From IMG/VR virus record IMGVR_UViG_2563366944_000005: a DNA stretch of 23,570 nt; one strand, given 5' to 3'. Position 1 is the first letter of the stretch; each line of letters starts with the position of its first letter. Shown here in pieces: positions 12,935-20,026 of this stretch. The notes beneath the pieces were generated by a model. The model had not been told where the DNA came from. It did no database searches and worked only from the letters and a program-made list of their open reading frames with translations. The DNA is from a virus (Duplodnaviria; Heunggongvirae; Uroviricota; Caudoviricetes). The position numbers and the translations under genes are program-made.

Positions 12935-13222
12935 TCAGAGAATGCGTTTGACCGCCTCGCTATATACTTCCGAGCGTTCTCTTTTCCCAACAGAAATCAC
13001 GAAAACGACAACTTTCTCGTCTATAACCTGGTATACAAGGCGATAGCCTGAAGACCGGAGCTTAATCTTGTAACAATCAGGCATACCACGGAGCTTGTTT
13101 GCTTCAATCCGGGGTGACTCAAGTACTTCAACCAGCTTCTTTTTCAACTGTTCACGTACCGTCGAGCCCAGCTTTCGCCATTCCTTTAGTGCCCGCTCGT
13201 CAAAATCCAGAAAATACGCCAT
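12935..13222 (-). CDS. relE: RelE mRNA interferase toxin (95 aa)
   Basis: Track ORF MAYFLDFDERALKEWRKLGSTVREQLKKKLVEVLESPRIEANKLRGMPDCYKIKLRSSGYRLVYQVIDEKVVVFVISVGKRERSEVY...; ATGA overlap with relB stop. Confidence 0.9.
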   Translation of the reverse strand: MAYFLDFDERALKEWRKLGSTVREQLKKKLVEVLESPRIEANKLRGMPDCYKIKLRSSGYRLVYQVIDEKVVVFVISVGKRERSEVYSEAVKRIL

Positions 13223-13461
13223 CAGAGTTCATCCAGCGTCACACGTACTGGCTTAGGATTACGAAGCCGTTCTTTCACTATCTCCACAAGTTCAGCATCT
13301 TCATCACTCAGGAGTGTCTGTTTGAACGGCAAGCGTTCATTGTCAGCGATATACTCGAGCATGAGACGAAGCGCTTCAGAAGGAGTTACACCCATTTTTT
13401 CAAGCGCGGCGTAAGAACGCGCTTTAAGTTCATCGTCAATACGCAGGTTAATGCTACCCAT
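13222..13461 (-). CDS. relB: RelB antitoxin (79 aa)
   Basis: Track ORF MGSINLRIDDELKARSYAALEKMGVTPSEALRLMLEYIADNERLPFKQTLLSDEDAELVEIVKERLRNPKPVRVTLDEL. Confidence 0.9.
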   Translation of the reverse strand: MGSINLRIDDELKARSYAALEKMGVTPSEALRLMLEYIADNERLPFKQTLLSDEDAELVEIVKERLRNPKPVRVTLDEL

Positions 13462-13469
13462 GTCTTACA

Positions 13470-13500
13470 CCTCTTGTAATTACAAATGTCATTACAAGTA
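13470..13500 (-). promoter_or_regulatory. relBE promoter/operator (relO-like dyad)
   Basis: cTTGTAATTACAAatgtcATTACAAg: palindromic TGTAATTACA plus a repeated TTACAA half-site immediately upstream of relB. Confidence 0.6.
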
Positions 13501-13791
13501 TCGCACTACAACATGCTTAGGGCAAGTCACGAAGGAAGTCAGAAAGTAGTCGTAAGAACGGTGATCACTGTCCGCTTTGTGCCAGGAGCAGCCATTGCTA
13601 AGTCCATCCTGTATTGTGCAGGTCAGCTCGTTTTTAAAGAGTCCGGCCATCATCTTACTGGTACAGACACCATATACTTTGTGACGGTCAGGCTACATAT
13701 GCACAACTCAACTTATTCATCTATTTTTTGCTTTAGCATGTCAGTGTTGCTTTCTCGTCGGCGGGTGAGCGGTGACCTGACCTGTCGATAA
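13486..13791 (+). CDS. ydfV: ydfV-like ORF (101 aa), doubtful coding status
   Basis: Track ORF; no SD; Cys- and Ser-rich, odd composition; overlaps the relB promoter. Confidence 0.3.
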   Translation: MSLQVSHYNMLRASHEGSQKVVVRTVITVRFVPGAAIAKSILYCAGQLVFKESGHHLTGTDTIYFVTVRLHMHNSTYSSIFCFSMSVLLSRRRVSGDLTCR

Positions 13792-13943
13792 AGGAACGTA
13801 ACACGTTTTATGCAACACCCGCATGCGGCAGAAAATTATTGCCGAACGTTTACCCCTGTCAACAAGCTTTACTTTCTGAGGCGCGCCAGCCCGCGAGGAA
13901 AACAATCTGAACATCAAACAATTAATGACACAAGAAATACGAT

Positions 13944-13970
13944 TAAAGATTTTTTTGTGCATGCCGATAG
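13944..13970 (+). promoter_or_regulatory. sigma-28 (FliA) type promoter upstream of flxA
   Basis: TAAAGATT, 11 nt, GCCGATAG compared with the recalled consensus TAAAGTTT-N11-GCCGATAA; about 24 nt before the flxA SD GGAGA. Confidence 0.6.
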
Positions 13971-13993
13971 TGCTTTTTTAAAAGGAGAAATCT

Positions 13994-14326
13994 ATGTCTG
14001 TCACAATTCAGGGAAATACCTCAACCGTTATTTCAAACAACTCCGCCCCGGAAGGAACATCAGAAATAGCCAAAATCACAAGACAAATTCAGGTGCTGAC
14101 TGAAAAGCTTGGGAAAATCTCATCGGAAGAGGGGATGACGACACAGCAGAAAAAAGAAATGGCTGCATTGGTACAGAAGCAAATTGAAAGCCTCTGGGCT
14201 CAACTGGAGCAGTTGTTAAGGCAGCAGGCAGAGAAAAAGAATGAAGACGCGACAGTTCAGCCTGATAAAAAAGAAGAGAAAAAAGACGATACAAATACCG
14301 CTGGCACCATTGATATTTACGTCTAA
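13994..14326 (+). CDS. flxA: FlxA (110 aa)
   Basis: Track ORF; ATG with AAGGAGA SD; coiled-coil, Lys/Glu/Gln-rich. Confidence 0.85.
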   Translation: MSVTIQGNTSTVISNNSAPEGTSEIAKITRQIQVLTEKLGKISSEEGMTTQQKKEMAALVQKQIESLWAQLEQLLRQQAEKKNEDATVQPDKKEEKKDDTNTAGTIDIYV

Positions 14327-14337
14327 GTGACAGCCGT

Positions 14338-14368
14338 ATTGTGGCCCTCATCGGGCCACTTTTCGCCA
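14338..14368 (+). terminator. rho-independent terminator after flxA
   Basis: GTGGCCC-tcatc-GGGCCAC followed by TTTT. Confidence 0.6.
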
Positions 14369-14674
14369 TCAGCCTTTTCTTTAAAGACATATTATCTTTG
14401 TATCATTTCTGATAGTTAACATTACAAGATATAAGTAATGGACGCACTCCCAATTAGTCTATTTAAATCGCCACGAGTTTAACTGACAACCCATGATCAA
14501 TTATGAATTGCAACTATTTCTGTAGTCACTTTTGTGGGGACAGTCCACAAAACTGCCAACTTCCGCTTCTTGCTCTTAGCGGACATTAGCATAGGCTATT
14601 TACCATAACGCCTCATTACGCGCACCGCCCAGACTGACTCAGCGCGTTTCTGGCATATCCCCGGTAAAACAAGT

Positions 14675-16130
14675 AACAAACCACCCGAAAATGAACACCA
14701 GAAACGCGACTTAAGAATCTACCCTATGAATGGATATGCACTCAACCGAATCGATCTTGGTTTCAATCTTTTTTATCGGGATCAGGCTTCTTTTTAGGTA
14801 ACTTCGGGGGCTTAACTTGCTGATGACTTTGCGTTCGGCGCGTAAGCCAGGGATGGTCAGCTTTAGGTTTAACATAGTATTTTGAGCGTAAATCAATACG
14901 GGCATTATCCACTCGTTCATGGACACTCTTTTCATCATCCAGTGGTATAGGCTCCGGGCCATCAACATACTTTTCCCAGCCCAGCGCTTTCCCGTCATAC
15001 AGAACGTTAATTTCACCGTCAAAGTTCTCGCATACAGTAACAACCGAATGCCTAAGTCGATATCCCCGGCCCTCACTGCGTACCTGAAACGCACTGCTTT
15101 TGTACTGGAAAGTGAGATTTTTAGACAGAACGCGCTTCGCCTGTAGGCTGAAGATATAACCCAGTTCCTCTTCAGAATGGTGCACATCAAGATGAGCATT
15201 ATCAGTAGTACGAGGCGACGTAGCGAACCGGTTGTTATAGGCTTCAATAAAGGTCGGCAACCATGCATTTGCTGTTTCAATATCACTGATATTCTGAAGC
15301 CGCATTTCTTTGACCAGCCTGTCCTGTAGTGTCTGATTGGCGCGCTCTACCCGCCCTTTTGCCTGCGGGCTGTTGGCATGGATTGGCTCGATGCCCAGTG
15401 TCTTTATCGCACGAGTGAACTGGGTCAGCTCACCTTCCCGCTCTGGGTTATTTACCCTGAATATACTGTGTCTATCAGAGTAGAGAGCGAGCGGTACGCC
15501 ATGATCATTAAGGTAACCCCGGAGGGTTTCCATGTAAGCCCGGGTTGTTTCAGCAGGCACAAAACGCAACGCCATCAACGCACTGGTGGCATCATCAATG
15601 AAAACGATCAGTGTACATCTGGGGCCTCGATTTTCAAACCAGTCATGAGGTGAGCCATCAATCTGGATCAGTTCACCGTAAGATGGTCGTCGCATGCGGC
15701 GTTGATATATACGGGCAATTTTACGACGGCGTTCACGCCATAACCCCTCTTCTATCATCCACTTTCTGAGAGTTTCAACGGATAAAGATAAACCGTGTAT
15801 CTCGCGCAATTTTTCGCACGCAAACGTAGGTCCAAAATCAGCGTAACGGCCTTTGAGGAGTGAAATTACTGTTGCTCTGAATTCAGTAGAAAAGGAATTA
15901 TTAGGACGCTTTCCACGTCGGTGGGAAACCAGAGCAGAAGGCCCTTCATTTCTATACCGTTGCACCAGACGTTTAACCTGCCGAATAGAAATGCCAATGC
16001 GTGCCGCAGCTTGTTCCTGAATAATCTGAAGTCGGTGGAGTTCCTTATGACTCATCGTAACAGTCTCTTTGATCATGAAAAATCCCCCAGAGAATTGTCT
16101 GGGGACATTTTAGAATGGTTCAAAGGGGAC
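14675..16130 (-). mobile_element. insertion-sequence-like element (about 1.45 kb) carrying the transposase; ends approximate
   Basis: Imperfect inverted repeats: 14679-14693 aaccacccgaaaatg versus 16106-16120 cattttagaatggtt (CATTTTnGnnTGGTT core, roughly 75% over about 20 bp). Confidence 0.45.
14763..16076 (-). CDS. DDE transposase with integrase (rve-type) catalytic core and N-terminal HTH (437 aa)
   Basis: Track ORF; ATG with GGGGG SD; candidate D/D/E residues in LIVFIDDATS, ALYSDRHSIF, GRVERANQTL; HTH IGISIRQVKRLVQRY; IS family not assigned. Confidence 0.85.
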   Translation of the reverse strand: MIKETVTMSHKELHRLQIIQEQAAARIGISIRQVKRLVQRYRNEGPSALVSHRRGKRPNNSFSTEFRATVISLLKGRYADFGPTFACEKLREIHGLSLSVETLRKWMIEEGLWRERRRKIARIYQRRMRRPSYGELIQIDGSPHDWFENRGPRCTLIVFIDDATSALMALRFVPAETTRAYMETLRGYLNDHGVPLALYSDRHSIFRVNNPEREGELTQFTRAIKTLGIEPIHANSPQAKGRVERANQTLQDRLVKEMRLQNISDIETANAWLPTFIEAYNNRFATSPRTTDNAHLDVHHSEEELGYIFSLQAKRVLSKNLTFQYKSSAFQVRSEGRGYRLRHSVVTVCENFDGEINVLYDGKALGWEKYVDGPEPIPLDDEKSVHERVDNARIDLRSKYYVKPKADHPWLTRRTQSHQQVKPPKLPKKKPDPDKKD

Positions 16131-16410
16131 ATTACAGCTTGGTGTTAACAATAGCCTGCTTCTCCGTGCCTTTCGGCACGTAAGAGGCTAACCTACATGT
16201 GTCTAGCATGAAATTGGCCTCAGATTAATGTTAAGCGTCTTGCAGGACGCGTAATGTTAACTGGGGCTTTTCTCTATCTGCCGTTGGTGTCCATGCCCGA
16301 GGCAGATAGCCTCAAGCACCCGCAGTCATTCTACTTAACTAAGATTTCCCCGCAAACCGTTTTTGTCCAGCACAGTAAATATCCAACTAAACCAATGGAG
16401 TTCGCTGTAT

Positions 16411-16590
16411 TTACCGCCAGTATTCAATGCACATGACCGCCATGAACACCCCTAAAAAAAGGGCATTTATATATCCAAATATTAATATCAAAACATCAAC
16501 TTTTTCCATATACCTTGCTGTGAAGATGATGGGCATACATGATGCGAACAACCAGAACGCAACAAACAAAAACTGCAATGCGTTTTTCAT
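16411..16590 (-). CDS. small hydrophobic protein (59 aa, two predicted transmembrane helices)
   Basis: Track ORF 16411..16629 trimmed to the ATG at 16590 preceded by AGGAGG at 5 nt; MKNALQFLFVAFWLFASCMPIIF...VLILIFGYINALFLGVFMAVMCI. Confidence 0.5.
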   Translation of the reverse strand: MKNALQFLFVAFWLFASCMPIIFTARYMEKVDVLILIFGYINALFLGVFMAVMCIEYWR

Positions 16591-16844
16591 TATTCCTCCT
16601 ACAATCAATGTGCAATTACATTTAAACACACCTCAATTTGGCCGGACATATAAATATCTAAACCAGAAAAAATCACTTACATAGCGTTACAAACTCTTTA
16701 GTCTAAAGGTTCATCGTAAAACATTCCCCATACTTATCAGTCCGTTCCGCGCCAGGTAGCTCATTGCCTTATCTGGCAACCTGTAATCAGGTTTCCGCTT
16801 TTTCAGTTGGCTGGTCGTTTAACCGACATAGTTAATCCATTAAT

Positions 16845-17132
16845 CTAGTTGCCGGATGTTGGTGGATTTTCGCGTTTTAGTTGTTCATAAAAGTGCACAG
16901 CTTTAACCAGTTCTTCTGATGTAACGGGGACTGGTGAGGCAGTGAATAAGGCCTGAATTTGATAGTTCGGCCTGTCGTTACAATCCTCTTTTTTCGGTAC
17001 ATATTTCCAGTCACCAGACCACTACTTCCCCTGAAAGTCCGTAACGCCTTTTTTTACGTAGCGATATCGCCATGCCACTGGTTTTGCTTGCCCCGCCGTT
17101 TCATGCCCTTCCTGATAATTAATCTCGCTCAT
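16845..17132 (-). pseudogene. ORF interrupted by an in-frame amber codon (36 codons, TAG, 58 codons)
   Basis: Hand translation MSEINYQEGHETAGQAKPVAWRYRYVKKGVTDFQGK*WSGDWKYVPKKEDCNDRPNYQIQALFTASPVPVTSEELVKAVHFYEQLKRENPPTSGN*; TAG at about 17022-17024. Confidence 0.3.
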
Positions 17133-17742
17133 TCATCGCCCCACTCATCACAATATGCTTCGACCGGAGTTTTTCCCGCTTCATAGTCATCACGCTAGGA
17201 TTCGACATCAGCAGCACTTCCACCGCGTAACTCACCATAGTCCATTAATAGTTCATCCCGCTCTTCAAAACTGATGTTATATTTAGCTGAACAAAAATCA
17301 GCCACTTTGTGCTTCCTCATCGTCTTTTATTTCGTGGTATGAGTAATTGCAGTAGTTAAAGAAAATTTCTTATGCTCCGTCATGAATTTCCTCAGGTGTT
17401 GCGTCATCGTCCACTTCGAATACATCCTCAAAATCTCCACCAGCTATTCCCGTTTCAATAATAATTTTGAACTTTCGCATTTCACTACCGCCCTTTCGGG
17501 CGGCCTCCTGATGTTCTGAGGGTGCAGAAATCCATCCGGTTAAGGATTAAATTTTATTTACAGAACTGAATTTAATTATTCAGATATACGTATCTGTAGC
17601 CTTACGAATCTACTCACTGGATGCCTCTTTCATAAAAATAATCCAGTGGGTTTTATCGTTTTTTCCCTGTTCGTTGACAGATAACAGGTTTTCTGTCTGT
17701 CAGTGCCAGAATCTGGCTTACCGGTATTTGCGTTTCATTCCA

Positions 17743-18099
17743 TTAAAAAATCAGAACGCCGTGCGGCCTCAACACCCGAAAGGCTTCTTTAAATCTCTGT
17801 CGCGAATCATCACGCCAGGCATCTTTATTCAGCCGTCCATATTTCTTTCCCATCCAGGCGTTATCACCAACACTCTCAAGATGCGGAGGGTCTAATACAA
17901 CCATCGAAAAAGATGCGTCTGCAAATGATAATGCACGAAAATCTGCGATAATGTCAGGGCTGATAATCAAGCGTCTCCCATTGCGTAATGTGTATCCTTC
18001 TTTTCTGATATCGCTGAATATCGCCCGTTCGTCAGACTTATCGAACCAGAACATGCGGCTGCCACAGCACATATCAAGAATGGTTGCCGGTGCACTCAC
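17743..18099 (-). CDS. DNA methyltransferase-like N-terminal fragment (118 aa), probably truncated
   Basis: Track ORF with GTG start overlapping the upstream stop (GTGA); SAM-binding-like ILDMCCGS and DPPH motif; ends right after RVLRPHGVLIF with no continuation in any frame. Confidence 0.4.
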   Translation of the reverse strand: MSAPATILDMCCGSRMFWFDKSDERAIFSDIRKEGYTLRNGRRLIISPDIIADFRALSFADASFSMVVLDPPHLESVGDNAWMGKKYGRLNKDAWRDDSRQRFKEAFRVLRPHGVLIF

Positions 18100-18518
18100 T
18101 GCGCCACGTCCTGAAAATTACCCTGATAGAAAGCCAGTATGCGCTGCATAACTTCGCTCTTCCGGCACTCGCGACAGATTATGTTTAGGCGACTGTCGTA
18201 GCGACGTATTTCTCCGTCAGGTGATGACCAGATAAGGTCCGGATCAACCACAGCAGGTTTCTTCACCTTTGCCCTCGAGAGTTTTTTGCGGGCGTTTTGC
18301 CAGTCCTTACGCGCCTGTTCAGAGGGGAATAACCCGTAGCCGGAGTTGTATACATCGCCACTGGCTACCAGCTCTCTGGCAAGAACGCTCATCAGATATC
18401 TAGTCGCACCTGTTTTAGCTTCCAGTTGCCGTAACGTCTCACGGCCGCTCTGGCGCACGAGTTCCACCACCTGCCATTTAATTTTTTCCCGCTCTTCTTG
18501 TGTAAAAACTTTTGCCAC
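18096..18518 (-). CDS. hypothetical protein (140 aa), possible winged-helix DNA-binding protein
   Basis: Track ORF; GTG start preceded by AGGGGG; lies 40 nt downstream of the O-like gene. Confidence 0.55.
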   Translation of the reverse strand: MAKVFTQEEREKIKWQVVELVRQSGRETLRQLEAKTGATRYLMSVLARELVASGDVYNSGYGLFPSEQARKDWQNARKKLSRAKVKKPAVVDPDLIWSSPDGEIRRYDSRLNIICRECRKSEVMQRILAFYQGNFQDVAQ

Positions 18519-18558
18519 AAGTCCCCCTTAAAATTACCTCATGACCTGAAATCAACAC

Positions 18559-19524
18559 TTATCCTCTGAAACCAGGCGGAATTTCTGTATCCGGTTCAGA
18601 AATATGATTAACACAACGCTGTACAGGTGAACGTCCCAGGCGGATGACCAGTTCGTCCCATTTTTCGCGGAGCTTTGACGGGCTCATGATGTTTTTTACC
18701 CAGAATGGATCTCGCTGAACCCGACCAAACATTTCGCAAATTTGTCTGTGGCTTCTGCCATCCAGCATCCGCATTGTGCGCACGTCATTGGCCCAGGCAG
18801 TCCAGTTAGGCTCTTTTGGTCGCATGATCTCGCCATCATCACTGGCTGCCTGTTCGTAGAGACCCACGATCCGCCCCCAGATCCACTGCGCACACGCCAA
18901 ATCCTCCCTGCTACCCCACTGGCGTTTTTTCGCACTAAACACAACCGCGTCGGAGTTCCGGGTTAAAAAATCCTGTTCAGTCGTCTGCGGGTCCGGTTGC
19001 GAAGCTTCCGGACGAAAAGTGTTTTTATTCTCTGTAGTAATCTCTGTTGTATTCTCTGTAAGATCATCAGGCCATTTTGACCCGATGACATTGGGTCGTT
19101 TTGAACCAATGGAGCGTTTCATTTTGACCTCTTCCATCGTGTCATTTTGACCTGATGGAGCGGCGCATTTTGAACCGATGGATTCGCTCAATTTGCCACC
19201 ATCTAAAAGCTCGCTCCCATAGTTGATCGTGTAGAAATTGGTCATATCGCGCTTTGATTTATTGAGCTTTTCACAACGCAAAAGCCCCAGCGTTTTCAGA
19301 CTTGCAAACGCGCGCTTTAACGTTGACTCTGACCAGAATGGGAACTGTTCCAGCCATTGTTCCGTTGTGTTATAAATCCAGCGAACACCATCACATTCCA
19401 TGCCGGAGTTGGTATCTCTCAACCAGTAGTGCAGTTGTTGCAAAACAATGGCTTCGTTTAAGCCAATTTTCATTGCCAGCTGCGTGTTTATAACCAGTGG
19501 GCGTTCAGCAAAAAGAAGGCTCAT
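18559..19524 (-). CDS. replication initiator / replisome organizer (O-like); about 321 aa from the first ATG
   Basis: Track ORF 18559..19578 begins at TTG; N-terminal DNA-binding-like region; central repeated IGSK motifs encoded by iterons. Confidence 0.75.
   Translation of the reverse strand: MSLLFAERPLVINTQLAMKIGLNEAIVLQQLHYWLRDTNSGMECDGVRWIYNTTEQWLEQFPFWSESTLKRAFASLKTLGLLRCEKLNKSKRDMTNFYTINYGSELLDGGKLSESIGSKCAAPSGQNDTMEEVKMKRSIGSKRPNVIGSKWPDDLTENTTEITTENKNTFRPEASQPDPQTTEQDFLTRNSDAVVFSAKKRQWGSREDLACAQWIWGRIVGLYEQAASDDGEIMRPKEPNWTAWANDVRTMRMLDGRSHRQICEMFGRVQRDPFWVKNIMSPSKLREKWDELVIRLGRSPVQRCVNHISEPDTEIPPGFRG
19070..19195. repeat. origin-like iteron array inside the O-like gene (5 direct repeats at about 23-24 bp spacing)
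   Basis: cATTTTGAcCCGATGa / gTTTTGAaCCAATGGA / cATTTTGAcCtcttcc / cATTTTGAcCTGATGGA / cATTTTGAaCCGATGGA starting near 19073, 19097, 19120, 19143, 19167; AT-rich TCTCTGT-repeat stretch at 19030-19060. Confidence 0.65.
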
Positions 19525-20026
19525 AATTCCATCCAGCTTTTTGTTGGTATTGCTGTCGATACGCAAGTTTGAAAGCAATTGCTTTTTCTATAAGTTCGTC
19601 AGTTTCACGATCCACTACGGCAGGATCAGCAAAAAGCAGTCCGGACTCCACCACATCGCCATATTCTTTGTTTAACCCGGCGATCATGCACGTGATGCTT
19701 TTTCCGTCAGTAATTTCACGATACAACCTGAAATCATTAATCCGGATAGCCTCCATAATTGCAGGCACTAGCGCCGTGAACTTTTCACGCTTATCCCTGG
19801 TGTCGATAGCCTTCCAGCGTTCAAATATCTTCACTCGATTAACGCCAAGCGCTCGCTGATCAATCGCGCCACCTTCATATGTGACACGCTGAACATCGAT
19901 GTTCGGGCGCTCTTTCAAAGCCCAGAATGCTTCAGTGATTAATATCGTCGCCTGCTCCTGTGTCATTCCTGGTCGACATATCCAGGCATCCAGAGCCTCA
20001 CGAGCCTGTTCAGGAGTGATTTTCAT
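19505..20026 (-). CDS. hypothetical regulatory protein in the cII position (173 aa); possibly YdaT-family
   Basis: Track ORF; ATG start; overlaps dicC 3' end by 17 nt and the O-like gene start. Confidence 0.6.
   Translation of the reverse strand: MKITPEQAREALDAWICRPGMTQEQATILITEAFWALKERPNIDVQRVTYEGGAIDQRALGVNRVKIFERWKAIDTRDKREKFTALVPAIMEAIRINDFRLYREITDGKSITCMIAGLNKEYGDVVESGLLFADPAVVDRETDELIEKAIAFKLAYRQQYQQKAGWNYEPSFC

Follow-up and report, generated by a model that had tools for sequence, protein, structure and literature searches.

A probable ISEsa1-type transposon carrying relBE and variable cargo at the hokD start of a Qin-type prophage

The window analysed here is the whole 23,570-nucleotide stretch of the caudoviricete record IMGVR_UViG_2563366944_000005. 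It contains one long transposase open reading frame (ORF) of 437 aa, on the minus strand at 14763..16076, located between flxA and the replication module. The original prediction had described at this place a simple insertion sequence (IS) bounded at 14675-16130; the single ORF and its position were borne out, while the proposed boundaries and the simple organization were not. The mobile unit very probably comprises 12877-16150 (3274 bp, taken on the minus strand, as the transposase), with one end at 16150 and the other 1.8 kb past the left limit initially proposed. Comparison of its copies gives the order left end, transposase gene, variable cargo (flxA and ydfV), relBE and right end. As the right end lies beyond relE, flxA, ydfV, relB and relE are all inside, and these genes without a role in transposition distinguish the element from a simple IS: it is a transporter IS, or unit transposon.

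The limits of the unit are marked by a perfect 15-bp target-site duplication (TSD), GGAGAAGCAGGCTAT, present at 12862-12876 and 16151-16165 and read on the minus strand. The copy on the hokD side runs from the Shine-Dalgarno sequence of this gene through the 'AT' of its ATG, and at the copy on the side of the hok leader the match to the Rfam sok model stops, with the 'T' of the IS standing in for the G of the ATG. An empty site was found in a lambdoid prophage of strain CUVET20-PYO4 (L086), which has the same neighbouring genes, holds GGAGAAGCAGGCTAT once and keeps leader and hokD contiguous. Window positions 16797-16151 correspond to 4654-5301 of L086 and positions 12877-12613 to 5286-5548, and this two-block alignment indicates that 15 bp were duplicated and that the block between them is an insertion. 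Both the search for TSDs and the comparison with a related prophage, suggested together with the original prediction, had therefore a positive outcome.

Since Shine-Dalgarno and ATG both lie in the duplicated 15 bp, hokD retains them. Its coding sequence (12708..12863, minus strand, for the 51-aa HokD) no longer adjoins the promoter, mok and Sok target, from which the insertion has separated it, and is now found 71 nt directly downstream of relE. The orphaned leader (sok/mok region, 16151..16321, minus strand) ends at the IS junction and points into the left end of the transposon. Where it abuts the left tip it matches the full-length Rfam sok model RF01794 with 104 bits (16321..16150), and many E. 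coli hok loci match it exactly to 16151 and then run on into hokD. It is thus the leader and start region of hokD that was hit, instead of the early region whose disruption had been envisaged. For the 60-bp hok leader fragment 16151-16210, a hairpin, GTGCCGAAAGGCAC, is named together with the 15-bp core.

Both ends of the unit were then compared. The left terminal inverted repeat (TIR), TGTTAACACCAAGCTGTAATGTCCCC (16125..16150, minus strand), is constant across plasmid and genome copies while the two bases preceding it vary, which places the left tip, on the upstream side of the transposase gene, at 16150. The inserted block ends ...GCGTTGACA, whose reverse complement is the right TIR, TGTCAACGCAAAGCAGAAGTGTCACC (12877..12902, plus strand), with its tip at 12877; in agreement, over 3500 E. 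coli genomes that lack the element align with the window from exactly 12877 onward. The two TIRs are equal at 19/26 positions and have TGT...ACA outer ends. Each end also holds an inner repeat of the TIR core, ACCATTCTAAAATGTCCCC on the left (16101..16119, minus strand, 15/19) and a copy at 12909-12927 on the right (13/19).

Regarding the transposase, the predicted helix-turn-helix (HTH) and DDE core were supported by Pfam HTH domains at the N-terminus (HTH_29/HTH_32/HTH_28, residues ~20-107) and by a weak match to the integrase core rve_3 (residues 229-282). A C-terminal extension of about 190 aa had also been proposed; this portion exists, and most of it is conserved in the family, since residues 14-368 align with positions 7-365 of the 368 in the NCBIfam profile NF033594 ('ISNCY family transposase'), at E=1.2e-136 and with a score of 455.7 bits, the cutoff being 250 bits. 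Motif assignment predicts as catalytic residues D140 (IQID140GS), D201 (LYSD201RH) and E244 (GRVE244RANQTLQ251), with Q at E+7, and the spacing of the triad parallels that of D142/D203/E247 in TnpAjo2. A search of PDB chain sequences for TnsB/MuA relatives returned nothing at E<=0.01.

Relative to the 446-aa form, found for instance in a 3301-bp element of Shigella flexneri (L017) bounded by another 15-bp duplication, the transposase gene of the window carries a 27-bp in-frame deletion between short direct repeats (junction within 16015-16028). The nine residues lost, QESINRHIT, belong to the N-terminal DNA-binding region, just before the first HTH, and because of this loss the window copy may be transposition-defective, with both its ends kept. 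The 3274-bp allele bearing the deletion is common, being found at 21 further loci. Identical DNA is present in hundreds of E. coli chromosomes, where PGAP annotates (RefSeq, L001) an 'ISNCY family transposase, partial' with incomplete or missing C-terminus and a separate ydfW coding sequence. This 'ydfW' stretch of K-12 and RefSeq (14763-14912, minus strand) shares frame and stop codon with the transposase ORF, of which it is the final 49 codons, so that splitting the intact 437-aa ORF looks like an artefact of carrying over the K-12 gene name. The plasmid-borne 446-aa form is labelled 'IS1202-like element ISEsa1 family transposase' in RefSeq.

Comparison of copies in different contexts resolves the element into a backbone of two modules with an exchangeable section between them. 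The left module (16150-14558) is 99.6% identical to plasmid copies called ISEsa1 and ~90% identical to a second variant group, both groups being 'ISEsa1 family' in RefSeq; identity is maintained down to 14558-14572, where copies diverge. The right module (12877..13589, minus strand) contains the right end and the genes relB (13222-13461) and relE (12935-13222) with the region upstream of them; it is 98.6-98.8% identical in the plasmid elements L088 and L089 and always adjoins the right TIR. The variable cargo between both (13590..14557, plus strand) consists in the window of flxA (13994-14326) and most of the ydfV ORF (13486-13791). In L088 this slot holds instead 10.5 kb with nickel (ncrABCY) and chromate (chrBA) resistance and other genes, and in L089 3.8 kb with ISEsa2, a cytochrome b gene and a CDF transporter gene. 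As the right module is constant in all cargo variants, relBE appears to behave as a core addiction module of the transposon, with the middle section exchangeable. The ydfV ORF reaches across 13589/13590, where the conserved relBE module meets the variable cargo, and for this reason may be chimeric or spurious.

Four further elements support this organization, all bracketed by perfect 15-bp duplications: one of 3301 bp on a Salmonella IncI plasmid (L006, TGGAGGGGCTATGAT), one of 3307 bp on an Enterobacter IncF plasmid (L005, GGAGAAGAAGGCCAT), one of 12,843 bp on an IncFII/IncR plasmid (L088, CP032294.1, GGAGAAGAAGGCCAT) and one of 6,094 bp on the IncHI2 multiresistance plasmid pMS7884A (L089, NZ_CP022533.1, GGAGAAGAAGGCCAT), the last in a different hok gene from that of L088. 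Length thus ranges from 3.3 to 12.8 kb with differing cargo. Removal of the element and one repeat from L006 yields the sequence of ColIb-P9-type plasmids with 100% identity over 400 nt, and the same operation on L088 yields 98.3% identity to Enterobacter plasmids. Two other loci (L022 at ~2390-2450 and L220 at ~11700-11755) show a tandem of right end, 10-15 bp resembling the hok duplication, and a second left end, suggesting repeated use of the same target; the second element of L022 is a 73%-identical variant. In L018, an Rfam isrO match (RF01397) above gathering score at 2337-2450 of the minus strand spans the junction between chromosomal DNA and left TIR, suggesting that the seed of that family may include part of such an element.

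Cargo-free relatives were also detected in other phyla. Hahella holds ten copies of 1449 bp, with 62% aa identity in the transposase and duplications of 15-17 bp; a Rhabdochlamydiaceae genome has copies of ~1465 bp with duplications of 15-16 bp, and Chromatiales two copies with 15-bp duplications. The architecture of TIR plus inner repeat is common to all these relatives. Their right ends start TGTCAA..., as that of the window does, the first 12 nt being identical in the Rhabdochlamydiaceae copies.

Several non-coding features complete the element. Ahead of the transposase gene, a stem-loop (16084..16105, minus strand) has an 8-bp stem whose 3' arm contains the Shine-Dalgarno GGGGG, 8 nt before the ATG, and is followed by ATTTTTC-ATG; by blocking translation or terminating transcripts it possibly shields the transposase gene from read-through from the hok promoter. 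Some 55 nt past the transposase stop there is a palindrome (14643..14708, no strand assigned) with perfect 11-bp arms, CGCGTTTCTGG ... CCAGAAACGCG around TTTTCGGGTGGTTTGTTAC, strongly conserved even in variants that are 72-78% identical overall. An RNA structure was considered for it and discarded, as compensatory changes across variants were lacking and no Rfam match was found there. Finally, a hairpin closes the transposase module (AATGTCCGCT..AGCGGA, 14558..14590, no strand assigned). It is conserved in all variants, cargo differs beyond it, and it carries a GCGGACATT motif resembling the inner part of a right TIR; on this account it may represent what is left of an ancestral right end. This hairpin is also an insertion hot spot, where IncHI2-type plasmids have acquired ISEsa2 (IS110 family) or ISCfr4 (IS30 family) at corresponding sites (L089 ~20137; L010 ~4032), and the divergence seen in those plasmids at 14558-14572 corresponds to these insertions.

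Other candidates for the right end were evaluated and rejected. Positions 14558-14572, first taken as the IS end as plasmid matches stop there, showed neither TIR nor direct repeat and represent the boundary between conserved transposase module and variable cargo. The 14 nt following GAGC, regarded as a fossil duplication, were abandoned once the true right end was located. Three-frame translation by eye revealed no hok coding sequence immediately left of 14558, that of hokD being 1.7 kb further on. Besides these, a vestigial right end may lie at 14648-14699 or 14545-14570, where similarity to the TIR is weak and at chance level.

No IS family had been assigned in the original prediction. The transposase is assigned here to the IS1202 family (former ISNCY), ISEsa1 type, in view of its profile match, Q (not K/R) at E+7, TGT/ACA ends, TIRs of ~26 bp, inner repeats and a 15-bp duplication. 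[quoted passage not shown] In the same source ISEsa1 is entered with 1609 bp, TIRs of 15/22, a transposase of 439 aa and no duplication (Harmer and Hall 2023, PMC10132070), and forms with ISCARN112 a third, 'no-TSD' subgroup with no target found (PMC10132070). Our element shares transposase and left end with ISEsa1, the 439 aa of ISfinder being the 446-aa form minus its first 7 codons. ISfinder rules take a copy as the same IS when its nucleotide identity to the reference sequence is >=95% over the whole length. On the contrary, it measures 3274 bp (3301 bp without the deletion), with TIRs of 19/26, a 15-bp duplication, relBE cargo and a strong preference for hok starts. In L089 the left tip and the ISEsa2 junction are 1611 bp apart, against the 1609 bp catalogued for ISEsa1, and both ISEsa1 and ISEsa2 were named from Enterobacter sakazakii. 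We infer that the catalogued right end is probably this ISEsa2 junction and hence wrong, which would explain the missing duplication. With 15 bp here and 15-17 bp in the relatives, the ISEsa1 subgroup would be of the long-TSD type.

Other known systems share some of these traits. The long-TSD members of the family (IS1202, ISTde1, ISCARN53/62/63, ISVbsp4; 16-28 bp) have TGT/ACA ends, TIRs of ~26 bp, an inner repeat, a single large DDE transposase and long duplications, but are cargo-free, have no known target, and their transposases are distant from that of ISEsa1, which is ~27% identical to the IS1202 one (PMC10132070). The dif-hunting IS1202 elements (ISAjo2 group, ISKpn21, ISSen13) likewise use a helper-free single transposase and insert orientation-specifically at a fixed distance from a conserved, mostly plasmid-borne site, and some of those termed transporter IS (tISKpn21, tISKpn65, tISRel10) carry a passenger ORF. 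Nonetheless, they target XerC/D dif-like sites with 3-5-bp duplications, whereas the present element inserts into the Shine-Dalgarno/start region of hok, duplicates 15 bp and carries up to 11 kb of cargo. Resemblance to Tn7 (TnsB, attTn7) lies in the TGT...ACA termini, the several transposase-binding repeats per end and the site- and orientation-specific use of a 'safe' site. Tn7 requires TnsA, TnsC and TnsD/E, genes not present in this element, and makes 5-bp duplications. Tn3-family transposons with type II toxin-antitoxin modules also keep the toxin-antitoxin pair constant, beside the transposition functions; their transposase is unrelated and replicative, their duplication 5 bp, and they have res/resolvase and no hok targeting.

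Junctions were analysed on a larger sample, in which 147 further exact left-TIR copies drawn from viral and metagenome collections gave, with the earlier loci, 163 usable junctions in 44 flank clusters. The hok-leader profile ends at the junction in 27/44 clusters, and several more keep only an SD-like (Shine-Dalgarno-like) stretch of 15-25 nt. In the window and six other loci tested, the match to the Rfam sok model breaks off precisely at the left tip. Junctions follow the 'AT' or 'ATG' of the hok start codon, with four different hok coding sequences being represented. All but one of the insertions at hok loci share the orientation of hok. At L004 and ten similar loci, ttgtatgggtcc or atgtatgggtcc stands between the left TIR and the leader, whose last letters are ...caaggag.

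The situation in K-12 is the reverse of that first imagined, namely that the element had replaced its integrase and ydfX remnants. Sequence identity between K-12 and the window extends over 13589-14947 and resumes at 19747, so K-12 lacks 14948-19746 (4.8 kb), and its intQ is ~4 kb away, at the opposite end of Qin. The stretch absent from K-12 comprises the left end with the greater part of the transposase gene, the hok leader/sok and replication-module genes up to ydfX. The deletion junction of K-12 MG1655 (7358/7359 in L002) shows a 2-bp overlap, and ydfX remains on its far side. Judging from this alignment, K-12 is a deletion derivative left with ydfW, flxA, ydfV, relBE and the right end. 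Over 5426 complete E. coli genomes, 1165 contain the junction of relE, right end and hokD, and 793 retain 80% or more of the transposase gene; in the other junction-bearing genomes, K-12 and its derivatives included, the ydfW remnant is all that is left of it. Regarding earlier accounts, Ramisetty and co-workers stated that plasmid-acquired relBE integrated into the hokD locus, truncating the upstream (mok) frame (cited in PMC6379469); as far as that account is available through the citing text, it gives no vehicle, ends, duplication or link to the transposase and ydfW.

Considering these observations, alternatives to the 3274-bp transposon must be weighed. That the CATTTTnGnnTGGTT-core inverted repeats delimit a simple IS of ~1.46 kb at 14675-16130, as originally proposed, is extremely improbable. 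The two arms do exist (14679-14693 and 16106-16120), and with two occurrences in the window their pattern exceeds the 0.30 expected, though it was derived from the arms themselves. Nonetheless, they are complementary at only 12/15 positions, come 16th among the 58 inverted-repeat pairs of that 2-kb region, have no flanking direct repeat and lose their mutual similarity in diverged variants. They are not termini but lie inside the conserved unit, as the 99.6% conservation in unrelated contexts passes both, reaching 14558 and 16150, an outcome that the original prediction had itself named as refuting it; the right arm belongs to the true inner repeat at the left end, and the left arm sits in a separate conserved non-coding element, the palindrome at 14643-14708. 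It is also very unlikely that a complete ISEsa1 of 1.6 kb, from 16150 to ~14569, lacks a duplication and merely adjoins an unrelated relBE-flxA insertion in hokD. The published length, TIRs and absence of TSD would agree with this, as would the module boundary at 14558-14572 shared by all variants, with its hairpin and TIR-like motif. On the contrary, the 15-bp duplication and a family-typical right end bracket the whole 3274 bp, the four further elements with different cargo are bracketed alike, and close relatives make 15-17-bp duplications. Moreover, the catalogued length coincides with the ISEsa2/ISCfr4 junction at the hairpin, and none among ~170 junctions showed a 1.6-kb copy in an unrelated site with a right TIR and its own duplication. 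Equally little credit is given to the spread of a relBE-transposase block between hok loci by homologous recombination, for which both hok-homologous flanks would speak, as would the recombinational appearance of cargo swaps between modules and of mixed flanks (L005 versus L003). However, duplications vary from locus to locus (GGAGAAGCAGGCTAT, GGAGAAGAAGGCCAT, TGGAGGGGCTATGAT), each in agreement with the hok sequence at its own site, known plasmids are restored at 100% identity upon removal of the element and one copy, a non-hok insertion (L078) also has a 15-bp repeat, with 2 mismatches, and cargo-free relatives transpose with duplications of their own.

The alternative with a better, though still minor, chance accepts transposition and attributes the hok association to selection, insertions that silence hok or place it in a relBE-hok operon having survived, instead of to targeting by the enzyme. 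No target consensus was seen among the Hahella cargo-free copies, so hok specificity could stem from selection on plasmids and prophages; about 12 of the 44 flank clusters, roughly a quarter, are unrelated, non-hok sequence in which no common motif was seen, so the targeting is a preference and not absolute; and the strong orientation bias (27+ clusters versus 1) could have been selected. On the other side, in hok leaders diverging by 20-30% the position of the junction is the same to within one or two nt, and the single opposite-orientation insertion (L021) used the identical 15 bp, inverted. Insertion anywhere in the 150-bp hok coding sequence would also silence hok, and none was seen. Resemblance of the pattern to the dif-site hunting of other IS1202-family members, known site-hunters, further argues for enzyme-directed targeting, with selection on plasmids and prophages as a less probable alternative. 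Besides the non-hok clusters and the lack of a Hahella consensus, other points speak against the transposon model. Support for the transposon model is entirely comparative, and flank clusters are not proven independent events. The 11 loci of the L004 junction type lack a duplication, with no matching one at the right end where this is in range (L153). Copies per E. coli genome reach at most 3, with a median of 1, and thus give no hint that the element is active there at present. It is conceivable that an ancestral IS of 1.6 kb had a right end of its own, given that all variants end the transposase module at the same hairpin with its inner-TIR-like motif. Within the open-access literature, to which the search was limited, no prior description of the transposon or of hok targeting was found, and a 2025-26 survey of Hok loci does not mention the transposon.

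Returning to the 3274-bp transposon, its history very probably began with a DDE cut-and-join insertion into a lambdoid (Qin-type) prophage, with 15-bp staggered cuts spanning the hokD Shine-Dalgarno through the 'AT' of the start codon. The single transposase would recognise something in the conserved hok translation-initiation region, and the insertion, while disarming hok/sok, would supply relBE as an addiction module of the element itself. In this way hokD would have become the third gene of the relBE transcription unit, with the 4.8-kb deletion in K-12 occurring later. Extending this to a general proposal, to which we give even chances, a single-transposase transposon family of Enterobacteriaceae with Tn7-like ends would home to the hok ribosome-binding site and start on plasmids and prophages, swap a type I addiction system for relBE, and ferry variable cargo, among it resistance genes for nickel, chromate and cation efflux. 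The relB-relE-hokD (relBEF) locus of K-12 would go back to one event of this kind, and targeting would reside in the transposase, possibly in its basic, lineage-specific C-terminal 'YdfW' tail.

Transposase and family were already known; new, as far as checked, are the extent of the element, its 15-bp duplication, relBE and the variable cargo, the preference for hok starts and the explanation of relBE-hokD and ydfW in K-12. The boundaries, duplication and target of ISEsa1 (1609 bp, none, none) would accordingly be corrected and the supposed 'no-TSD' subgroup of IS1202 removed, and an annotation artefact is exposed in RefSeq, where an intact transposase ORF is split into 'ydfW' and a 'partial' transposase. 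The true extent matters for the annotation of resistance plasmids, given the metal-resistance cargo on IncF/IncHI2 plasmids of Klebsiella and Enterobacter. For E. coli, the transposon would offer a concrete mechanism for the origin of the much-studied relBE-hokD of K-12 and account for the Qin orphans ydfW, ydfV and flxA. For the IS1202 family, hok starts would represent a second, unrelated target in a group of dif-hunting single-protein elements, and the choice of target might thus become experimentally approachable.

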